The position numbers were made by a program, and so were the translations under genes. Below are positions 54,754 through 55,585 of a stretch of DNA of 64,000 nt, piece by piece. How positions within the stretch are numbered: the first letter of the stretch is position 1; each line of letters begins with the position of its first letter. The stretch comes from Escherichia phage TH09: sequence record MT446387.1. One strand, given 5' to 3'. The notes beneath the pieces are model-generated. The model ran no database searches. It was not told the DNA's origin and was given only the letters and a program-made list of their open reading frames with translations.

Positions 54754-54826
54754 TGGGAATTAGCCAAGTTGGTAAGGCACTGGATTTTGATTCCAGGATG
54801 CAAAGGTTCGAGTCCTTTATTCCCAG
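54754..54826 (+). tRNA. tRNA-Gln (anticodon TTG)
   Basis: Hand-folded cloverleaf: acceptor tgggaat/attccca, anticodon loop ttTTGat, T-loop ttcgagt. Confidence 0.85.
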
Positions 54827-54827
54827 C

Positions 54828-54914
54828 GCGAGAATGGTCAAATTGGTAAAGGCACAGCACTTAAAATGCTGCGGAATGATTTCCTTGTGGGTTCGAGTCC
54901 CACTTCTCGCACCA
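54828..54914 (+). tRNA. tRNA-Leu (anticodon TAA), type II, CCA encoded
   Basis: Acceptor gcgagaa/ttctcgc, anticodon loop ctTAAaa, long variable arm, T-loop ttcgagt. Confidence 0.85.
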
Positions 54915-54919
54915 AATTT

Positions 54920-54993
54920 GCGGATATCGTATAATGGTATTACCTCAGACTTCCAATCTGATGATGTGAGTTCGATTCTCATTATCCGCTCCA
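54920..54993 (+). tRNA. tRNA-Gly (anticodon TCC), CCA encoded
   Basis: Acceptor gcggata/tatccgc, anticodon stem tcaga/tctga with loop ctTCCaa, T-loop ttcgatt. Confidence 0.85.
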
Positions 54994-55003
54994 ATTTAAT
55001 TTA

Positions 55004-55077
55004 CTCCGTGTAGCTCAGTTTGGTAGAGCGCCTGATTTGGGATCAGGAGGTCCAAGGTTCAAATCCTTGTATGGAGA
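55004..55077 (+). tRNA. tRNA-Pro (anticodon TGG)
   Basis: Acceptor ctccgtg/tatggag (two G-U pairs), anticodon loop ttTGGga, T-loop ttcaaat. Confidence 0.8.
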
Positions 55078-55079
55078 CT

Positions 55080-55169
55080 GGAGGCGTGGCAGAGTGGTTT
55101 AATGCACCGGTCTTGAAAACCGGCAGTCGCTCCGGCGACTCATAGGTTCAAATCCTATCGCCTCCGCCA
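55080..55169 (+). tRNA. tRNA-Ser (anticodon TGA), type II, CCA encoded
   Basis: Acceptor ggaggcg/cgcctcc, anticodon loop ctTGAaa, long variable arm, T-loop ttcaaat. Confidence 0.85.
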
Positions 55170-55174
55170 GTTTT

Positions 55175-55250
55175 GCTGATTTAGCTCAGTAGGTAGAGCA
55201 ACTCACTTGTAATGAGAAGGTCGGCGGTTCGATTCCGTCAATCAGCACCA
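55175..55250 (+). tRNA. tRNA-Thr (anticodon TGT), CCA encoded
   Basis: Acceptor gctgatt/aatcagc, anticodon loop ctTGTaa, T-loop ttcgatt. Confidence 0.85.
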
Positions 55251-55251
55251 A

Positions 55252-55326
55252 GGCCCTGTAGCTGGAAGGTTCAAGCAAGCGACTCATAATCGCCAGATGG
55301 TGGTTCAATTCCACCCAGGGCCACCA
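55252..55326 (+). tRNA. tRNA with anticodon CAT, probably the AUA-reading tRNA-Ile of T-even phages (could be Met)
   Basis: Acceptor ggccctg/cagggcc, anticodon loop ctCATaa, T-loop ttcaatt. Confidence 0.75.
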
Positions 55327-55339
55327 AATTAAGAATTAA

Positions 55340-55426
55340 GGGGAGTTATCCCGTAGAGGTAGCGGTGTGGACTGTAAATCCATTGTCATTGCGACTCGGG
55401 TGGTTCGACTCCATCACTCCCCACCA
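55340..55426 (+). tRNA. tRNA-Tyr (anticodon GTA), type II, CCA encoded
   Basis: Acceptor ggggagt/actcccc, anticodon loop ctGTAaa, long variable arm; the D-arm fold is slightly atypical. Confidence 0.7.
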
Positions 55427-55430
55427 ATTT

Positions 55431-55505
55431 GGATGTGTAGCTCAATGGCAGAGCGATCGCCTGTTAAGCGATTGGTTATAGGTTCGAATCCTATCACGTC
55501 CGCCA
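55431..55505 (+). tRNA. tRNA-Asn (anticodon GTT), CCA encoded
   Basis: Acceptor ggatgtg/cacgtcc, anticodon stem atcgc/gcgat with loop ctGTTaa, T-loop ttcgaat. Confidence 0.8.
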
Positions 55506-55509
55506 AATA

Positions 55510-55585
55510 CGAGGCATAGCTCAGAAGGAAGAGCAAGGACCTTCTAAGTCCTGGGTCGTAGGTTCGATCCCTACTGCCTCGACCA
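55510..55585 (+). tRNA. tRNA-Arg (anticodon TCT), CCA encoded
   Basis: Acceptor cgaggca/tgcctcg, anticodon stem aggac/gtcct with loop ctTCTaa, T-loop ttcgatc. Confidence 0.85.

Follow-up and report, generated by a model that had tools for sequence, protein, structure and literature searches.

A T2-type operon of ten tRNA genes, including tRNA-Tyr and tRNA-Asn, in Escherichia phage TH09

Introduction

The closest described counterparts of the transfer RNA (tRNA) cluster examined here are the tRNA operons of the T-even phages T2, T4 and T6. The cluster lies in a stretch of 64,000 nucleotides (nt) from Escherichia phage TH09 (MT446387.1), which as a whole we call the window, and it holds ten tRNA genes, among them tRNA-Tyr and tRNA-Asn. 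T4 has eight tRNAs, the number that a preliminary description of the cluster had given for it, and lacks these two; in T4, segB, a gene for a GIY-YIG homing endonuclease, sits exactly between the Ile and Arg genes. Phages T2L, RB1 and RB3 have no segB and do carry tRNA-Tyr and tRNA-Asn (PMC2330249), and T2-type Tyr and Asn genes were described in 2008. The preferred SegB cleavage site is located inside the T2L tRNA-Asn gene, and in crosses of T4 with T2L, segB homing replaces about 1.25 kb that carries the T2L Met(CAU), Tyr, Asn and Arg genes (PMC2330249).

T-even and T5-family tRNAs have also been connected with host defences. In infected cells, the Septu system EcB88 (PtuAB) cuts the variable arm of tRNA-Tyr, at C48/A49 (Chihara et al. 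2026, PMC13096335). Septu EcB88 restricts T4, a phage without tRNA-Tyr, while T6 is intermediate and T2 resistant; deletion of the T6 tRNA region sensitises the phage to Septu, while over-expression of T6 tRNA-Tyr or its SegB-driven tandem amplification restores plating (PMC13096335). The T6 tRNA-Tyr was seen by northern blot and was active in rescue assays, and since it is itself cleaved, its protection was ascribed to dosage (PMC13096335). The anti-Septu role of a T-even tRNA-Tyr was thus published in 2026. In the T5 family, tRNA-Tyr counters retron-Eco7 (Azam et al. 2024, PMC11555353), and E. coli tRNA-Tyr also rescues phage from retron-Eco7 when placed under a strong phage tRNA promoter, which again points to dosage (PMC11555353). 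Host tRNA-Tyr is therefore an established target, cut by both Septu EcB88 and the retron-Eco7 PtuAB (PMC13096335, PMC11555353). The AriB nuclease of PARIS targets tRNA-Lys, then tRNA-Thr(UGU), then tRNA-Asn(GUU), and makes its cut in the anticodon stem 3' of U36-A-A-U-C, between positions 40 and 41 (PMC12409363).

Here, we compare the cluster of the window with these systems and weigh the possible reasons for its tRNA-Tyr and tRNA-Asn genes. Gene content, homology, distribution in relatives and codon statistics were observed directly; expression, SegB homing and Septu rescue are taken from work on T2, T4 and T6. We consider it very probable that the cluster is a standard T2-type tRNA operon, combining codon supply with dosage-based buffering against defences, and that T4 lost Tyr and Asn to a segB cassette. 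There is little new in the operon itself, which is already known: the same ten genes occur in phage JLBYU31, and it is the ordinary operon of hundreds of T4-like isolates.

Results

The cluster is a T2-type tRNA operon

Based on ARAGORN calls across the whole window, ten tRNA genes lie on the plus strand with outer bounds 54754-55585, exactly where the preliminary description had placed ten tightly packed tRNAs. All ten score above the gathering threshold (29 bits) of the Rfam tRNA covariance model RF00005. They are separated by spacers of 0-13 nt (4 nt between Asn and Arg), and CCA is encoded in eight of them, the exceptions being Gln and Pro. The window belongs to Tequatrovirus, and its tRNA region is 99.9% identical to that of Escherichia phage JLBYU31 (Tequatrovirus gizh), whose annotation lists the same ten tRNAs.

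The gene order is that of the T-even operon: trna.2-like open reading frames (ORFs) are followed by Gln-Leu-Gly-Pro-Ser-Thr-Ile2, the right-hand cassette, the stable RNA genes rnaD and rnaC, and a terminator. Because rnaD, rnaC and then a strong terminator lie downstream of Arg, the tRNAs, rnaD and rnaC form one unit, as in T4. A terminator is annotated at the matching site in phages Aplg8 and SA21RB. On the upstream side, a sigma-70 promoter scan of the region before tRNA-Gln found none on the plus strand. Between the stop codon of the upstream ORF and tRNA-Gln there is a candidate middle-type promoter (Table 1), and the homologous site in SA21RB is annotated as a MotA-type middle promoter.

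The right-hand cassette, Ile2-Tyr-Asn-Arg, aligns as a homologue of the T2 cassette, so that T2/T2L (Brok-Volchanskaya et al. 2008, PMC2330249; MH751506) have the same series of CAU-tRNA, Tyr, Asn and Arg. The tRNA-Asn gene is 100% identical to that of T2. In alignments with T4 and T2, the CAU tRNA is of T2 type and unlike T4 tRNA-Ile; indeed, both the Ile and the Arg gene of T4 differ in sequence from Ile2 and Arg of the window. T2 and the window share the absence of segB, and their flanking trna.2-like ORFs match. They differ in that T2 has no tRNA-Thr, an ORF (trna.1) between Ser and the CAU tRNA, and a further ORF between Arg and rnaD. T4 shares with the window highly similar Gln, Leu, Gly, Pro, Ser, Thr and rnaC genes, a less similar rnaD (86%) and the same genomic site, from the ipI/trna.2 ORFs to the e.x genes. 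Unlike the window, T4 carries segB at the site of Tyr and Asn; Septu EcB88 restricts this phage (PMC13096335). T6 differs again, with segB directly 3' of Tyr, where it drives tandem amplification, and no Pro, Ser or Asn.

A tblastn search with T4 SegB found no match in the window, and homologues of segC, segD and segE are likewise absent from it. SegB-driven amplification in cis, as in T6, is therefore unavailable to this phage. In T4, segD lies between genes 23 and 24 and segE between inh and uvsW; the stretches of the window concerned, 19244-22176 and 13961-16203, hold neither gene. The phage is seg-poor like T2 and would act as a recipient in crosses with T4.

Identity of the individual tRNA genes

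Covariance scoring upholds both of the calls on which the preliminary description turned, though to different degrees. The tRNA-Asn has the best RF00005 score of the ten (74.1 bits), and the tRNA-Tyr the weakest, at 30.2 bits against the cut-off of 29, which is marginal. The low score reflects the class II structure of this tRNA, whose variable arm is long and whose D stem is short (3 bp). In a permissive search, the tRNA-Sec model also matched tRNA-Tyr, with 34.4 bits, which is under the cut-off of 47 for that model. A single-sequence minimum-free-energy fold did not recover the cloverleaf (z = -0.9), a result that is uninformative for a class II tRNA. The gene is 1 nt from the tRNA-Tyr of T2 and 2 nt from that of T6, and we would base the Tyr call mainly on this near-identity, with the covariance score as secondary evidence.

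In E. coli, the identity elements for tyrosyl-tRNA synthetase are G34-U35-A36, A73 and a long variable arm, and those for asparaginyl-tRNA synthetase are G34-U35-U36 and G73. As read from the sequence, the window tRNA-Tyr has G34-U35-A36, A73 and the long variable arm, with a 3' end of CCCC-A-CCA, and the tRNA-Asn has G34-U35-U36 and G73, with a 3' end of GTCC-G-CCA.

ARAGORN named the CAU tRNA as Met, and we reassigned it to the Ile2 (lysidine) type, since its best full-length matches across E. coli genomes are all annotated as tRNA-Ile. It also carries C4-G69 and C5-G68, which are the identity pairs for TilS. The CAU anticodon is presumably lysidine-modified and should then read AUA.

ARAGORN also reported an eleventh gene, 'tRNA-Lys(UUU)' at 55758-55851. 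This call lies within rnaC and is spurious, reaching only 18 bits against any tRNA-clan model. At rnaC of T4, T2 or Aplg8, which differ from the window there by a 1-nt indel, ARAGORN makes no tRNA call. The 3' part of rnaC resembles a tRNA and has a perfect T arm (CCGGG-TTCGAAT-CCCGG), and the 1-nt deletion relative to T4 is enough to trigger the call. Had it held, a tRNA-Lys(UUU) at this position would have mattered, as this tRNA is the target of PrrC and PARIS.

Distribution of tRNA-Tyr and tRNA-Asn among relatives

To the preliminary description, Tyr and Asn appeared to be additional genes. They are extra relative to T4 only, and are the majority state in Tequatrovirus. A 183-bp segment spanning Tyr and Asn is covered to at least 80% in 395 phage records, and the seven-tRNA block from Gln to Ile2 is covered to at least 80% in 475, so about four-fifths of the relatives carry both genes. 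At an identity of at least 99%, the Tyr-Asn segment is found in 187 records. Together with the position of segB in T4 and its homing behaviour in crosses, this distribution is most simply read as a derived loss in T4 by way of a selfish element, the eight-tRNA state being the minority one.

The cassette is also expanded in some relatives. In about 200 records (at least 95% identity), roughly half of the relatives, Asn and Arg are separated by a further gene, tRNA-His(GUG); in phage Aplg8 it lies at 2405-2598 of the retrieved stretch, and the window lacks it.

Beyond Tequatrovirus, the tRNA-Tyr gene is about 92% identical to genes of Enterobacter T4-like phages, about 96% to those of rV5-like phages and about 84% to those of T5-like phages. 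The variable arm plus T arm (GTCATTGCGACTCGGGTGGTTCGACTCCA) is identical in the T4-like, rV5-like and T5-like phages and unlike that of E. coli tyrU (compared genes: 601-687 in the rV5-like and 300-387 in the T5-like phage, each in its own retrieved stretch, and 55340-55426 in the window). This suggests that one phage tRNA-Tyr lineage may have been exchanged between phage families. In addition, plasmids of about 110 kb in some 240 E. coli assemblies carry tRNA-Tyr next to tRNA-Asn or tRNA-Thr, with about 84% identity to the Tyr-Asn segment (e.g., NZ_CP019027.1, 104808-104960; NZ_AP022542.1, 27319-27510). Phage-type tRNA-Tyr thus also circulates outside lytic phages, and the plasmids that bear it are possibly phage-plasmids.

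Codon usage

Codon usage was counted in greedily chosen, non-overlapping window ORFs of at least 80 amino acids (67 ORFs, 19,207 codons) and compared with one 50-kb region of E. coli K-12 treated by the same procedure. The most enriched amino acids in the phage are Tyr (4.22% vs. 2.56% in the E. coli sample; 1.64x) and Asn (5.83% vs. 3.86%; 1.51x). The eight most enriched codons are GGA, ATA, AGA, TCA, AAT, ACA, TAT and TTA, with AAT fifth (2.9x) and TAT seventh (2.7x), and every one of the eight is read by a tRNA of the cluster. His is the least enriched amino acid, at 0.53x host usage. Codon supply thus fits Tyr and Asn as well as it fits the eight tRNAs of T4. The preliminary description had preferred counter-defence to help with codon usage; by these counts, the two genes are accounted for at least equally well by codon supply.

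In the homologous 50 kb of T4, usage is the same as in the window (TAT 32.3 and AAT 43.3 per 1000). Since T4 has this usage without the two tRNAs, the presence of Tyr and Asn does not follow demand.

tRNA-Tyr and the PtuAB nucleases

We compared the window tRNA-Tyr with E. coli tyrU for changes that could make it a resistant variant, and found none at the cleavage site or in the anticodon loop: the GUC/A site of the variable arm and the CUGUAAA anticodon loop are both kept. The T6 tRNA-Tyr likewise has an identical variable arm, including GUC/A, and the T5-like tRNA-Tyr has the whole variable arm and T arm as in the window. As the cleavage site and anticodon loop are conserved, the window tRNA-Tyr should act by supply and not by resistance. 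By analogy, this phage, with tRNA-Tyr and without segB, should resemble T2 or T6 more than T4 on hosts with Septu or retron-Eco7.

That phage tRNAs can offset tRNA-cleaving defences, as the preliminary description proposed, accordingly holds in published work for tRNA-Tyr against Septu (PMC13096335); for tRNA-Asn the case is thin, as set out below. The proposed mechanism, cleavage at GUN anticodons, did not stand up, in that PtuAB cuts the variable arm and AriB the anticodon stem.

tRNA-Asn, tRNA-Thr and PARIS

The window lacks a tRNA-Lys(UUU), the main PARIS target, and T4 is rescued from PARIS by T5 tRNA-Lys alone, with no tRNA-Asn (PMC12409363). E. coli tRNA-Asn(GUU) itself is a secondary AriB target (PMC12409363). 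The phage tRNA-Asn reads G39 and G41 against U39 and C41 in the host, with position 40 unchanged, and its anticodon loop, CUGUUAA, is identical to that of the host. Because four of the five anticodon-stem pairs differ between the phage and host tRNAs, the changes at 39 and 41 need not be specific to the cut site. The phage tRNA-Thr(UGU) aligns with G40 against C40 in E. coli thrU, beside the AriB cleavage site. The T5 variants of tRNA-Lys, -Thr and -Asn have base changes that were shown, or are proposed, to prevent cleavage by AriB, and at the megablast level we detected no similarity between the window tRNA-Asn and T5-like Asn. More generally, the cluster is like the T5 family in holding phage copies of host tRNAs that nucleases deplete (PMC11555353, PMC12409363). 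Of six in vivo AriB targets, four overlap with Tequatrovirus tRNAs (hypergeometric P ~0.04), a post hoc and weak association. Altogether, the evidence for a counter-defence role of tRNA-Asn is thin.

Escape mutations in the anticodon loops of Tyr or Asn were looked for and rejected, both loops being identical to those of the host. Colicin E5, a bacteriocin with no known phage defence role, cuts the QUN anticodons of tRNA-Tyr, -His, -Asn and -Asp (PMC1669751), and the anticodon loops of the phage tRNAs would offer no escape from it.

Discussion

The reading that we favour would work as follows. A single transcript would run through the ten tRNAs, rnaD and rnaC to the terminator and be processed by host enzymes to mature tRNAs. 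These would top up the decoding of codons that an A+T-rich phage overuses, including TAT/TAC and AAT/AAC, and the same extra supply would cushion the loss of particular tRNAs to host defences. The tRNA-Tyr would protect by dosage against PtuAB, the nuclease of Septu and retron-Eco7, and Thr and Asn may partly relieve the effect of PARIS AriB. The Ile-segB-Arg cassette of T4 would have replaced Ile2-Tyr-Asn-Arg, with SegB cutting preferentially in the tRNA-Asn gene. Codon supply and defence buffering are not alternatives here, because the protection works through supply. Underlying this is our inference, by analogy, that the tRNAs of this phage behave like those of T2, T4 and T6.

Several points weigh against this reading. 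The deletion and rescue data concern the tRNA-Tyr of T6 (PMC13096335), a different phage, and T-even tRNA-Asn falls outside them. The resistance of T2 to Septu is not attributed to its tRNA-Tyr. T4 grows with equal codon usage but without Tyr and Asn, so that in laboratory hosts it can dispense with both codon supply and defence buffering by these tRNAs. The E. coli sample behind the enrichment values is small and rich in ribosomal protein genes, and the candidate middle promoter was assigned by eye.

A purely translational explanation, in which Tyr and Asn help with the codon and amino acid usage of an A+T-rich proteome and have no selected defence role, is rather unlikely, even though it accounts well for the usage data: Tyr and Asn head the enriched amino acids, TAT and AAT are within the top seven codons, all eight top codons are matched by phage tRNAs, and usage is alike across the lineage. 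It sits poorly with the identical usage of T4, with the tRNA-His of relatives, which serves the least-enriched amino acid, and with T6, where the dosage of tRNA-Tyr decides the outcome on Septu hosts (PMC13096335). The converse explanation, that Tyr and Asn are dedicated counter-defence cargo, namely nuclease-insensitive replacements with GUN anticodons that act together with repair by RNA ligase 2 (Rnl2), we judge unlikely. It can draw on the cleavage of QUN anticodons by colicin E5 (PMC1669751), on the T5 tRNA variants that resist AriB and PrrC (PMC12409363, PMC11555353), on the differences from the host near the AriB cut at Asn 39/41 and Thr 40, and on the third GUN tRNA, His, which about half of the relatives add and which codon demand (0.53x) does not explain. 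Yet the Tyr and Asn anticodon loops are host-identical, so that an anticodon-loop nuclease is not evaded; the Septu GUC/A site is conserved, and T6 tRNA-Tyr is cleaved (PMC13096335). Moreover, the changes at Asn 39/41 lie within a broadly different stem, colicin E5 is a bacteriocin and no known phage defence, T4 has Rnl2 without Tyr and Asn, and T4 can be rescued from PARIS without a tRNA-Asn (PMC12409363).

It is also improbable, a little more so than the cargo explanation, that the right-hand tRNAs are mostly passengers of selfish-element dynamics, shuffled and erased by SegB-like enzymes and themselves under slight selection. SegB recognises a T-stem-loop motif and converts about 1.25 kb of T2L (PMC2330249), endonuclease or other ORFs are inserted within the cluster in slur07, Ac3, ESh25 and T2, and the cassettes form a mosaic among relatives (His present or absent, segB present or absent, Tyr alone in T6); in addition, the 3' halves of tRNA-Tyr are nearly identical in T4-like, rV5-like and T5-like phages. 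Against this explanation, Tyr and Asn are very highly conserved in sequence across hundreds of isolates (187 records at 99% or above), tRNA structure is intact throughout, and a fitness effect has been demonstrated for T6 tRNA-Tyr (PMC13096335). A last possibility, which we regard as a long shot, is that the optional cassette members Tyr, Asn and His, all of the queuosine family (GUN), make up a modular anti-tRNase kit that is subject to SegB-type shuffling between phages and selected either by a host nuclease, or a defence that depends on modification, directed at Q34/GUN tRNAs or by the broader range of AriB, whose in vivo targets include Asn, His, Thr and Pro. The preliminary description had named universality of the ten tRNAs without a link to nuclease resistance as grounds against a defence role; about four-fifths of the relatives carry Tyr and Asn, and a link between tRNA-Tyr and Septu is published. 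We retain the combination of codon supply and dosage-based buffering as the most probable account of this operon.

Feature coordinates, RNA ligase 2 and neighbouring genes

Table 1. Features of the tRNA operon and the RNA ligase 2 gene; coordinates are positions in the window
Feature	Position	Strand	Evidence and remarks
Candidate T4 middle-type promoter	54660..54686	+	TGCTTTA, 15 nt, TATTAT; by eye, between upstream ORF stop and tRNA-Gln
tRNA-Gln (UUG)	54754..54827	+	ARAGORN; Rfam 67.4 bits; no encoded CCA
tRNA-Leu (UAA), class II	54828..54914	+	ARAGORN; Rfam 59.3 bits
tRNA-Gly (UCC)	54920..54993	+	ARAGORN; Rfam 65.8 bits
tRNA-Pro (UGG)	55004..55078	+	ARAGORN; Rfam 66.8 bits; no encoded CCA
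tRNA-Ser (UGA), class II	55080..55169	+	ARAGORN; Rfam 62.6 bits
tRNA-Thr (UGU)	55175..55250	+	ARAGORN; Rfam 72.9 bits
tRNA-Ile2 type (CAU)	55252..55326	+	ARAGORN as Met; Rfam 59.9 bits; T2-type sequence
tRNA-Tyr (GUA), class II, long variable arm	55340..55426	+	ARAGORN; Rfam 30.2 bits
tRNA-Asn (GUU)	55431..55505	+	ARAGORN; Rfam 74.1 bits; same as T2 gene
tRNA-Arg (UCU), T2-type sequence	55510..55585	+	ARAGORN; Rfam 65.8 bits
rnaD (species 2 stable RNA)	55587..55706	+	86% identity to annotated T4 rnaD
rnaC (species 1 stable RNA)	55713..55850	+	97.8% identity to annotated T4 rnaC
Intrinsic terminator	55901-55924 or 55901-55934	+	10-bp stem, 7 G-C pairs, then T run
rnlB (RNA ligase 2)	18211..19215	+	PF09414 E 3.4e-22; PF18043 E 8.5e-24; phrog_548 E 4.7e-139

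The preliminary description had also tied the tRNAs to an RNA ligase 2 gene in the window. The gene is real, a counterpart of T4 Rnl2 (gp24.1) encoding both the adenylyltransferase domain and the C-terminal domain specific to Rnl2 (Table 1); the tie is not. The rnlB gene of the window adjoins gene 24, 36.5 kb from the tRNAs, and T4 has rnlB at the same site. We rejected the link, as rnlB is a core gene that T4 keeps without Tyr and Asn, and it shows neither co-variation with the tRNAs nor proximity to them.

About 2 kb upstream of the tRNA operon, an ORF at 52137-52592 (plus strand) encodes Acb1, the anti-CBASS 2H phosphodiesterase (T4 gene 57B; Pfam PF23474, E 2.7e-60). Acb1 is an established anti-defence gene, which PHROGs and the T4 RefSeq record label as 'RNA ligase'. 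The operon is flanked by small polymorphic genes on the plus strand, at 52665-52922, 52987-53232, 55979-56452 and 56571-57134. Two of the flanking genes encode internal head/virion proteins (phrog_3499 and phrog_8111), and the two downstream genes are paralogues that match phrog_2280. Because their N-termini (MKSYAQFLNEA, MKTYAEFLTEA) are similar to the sequence that targets T4 internal proteins to the capsid, these small proteins may be injected.

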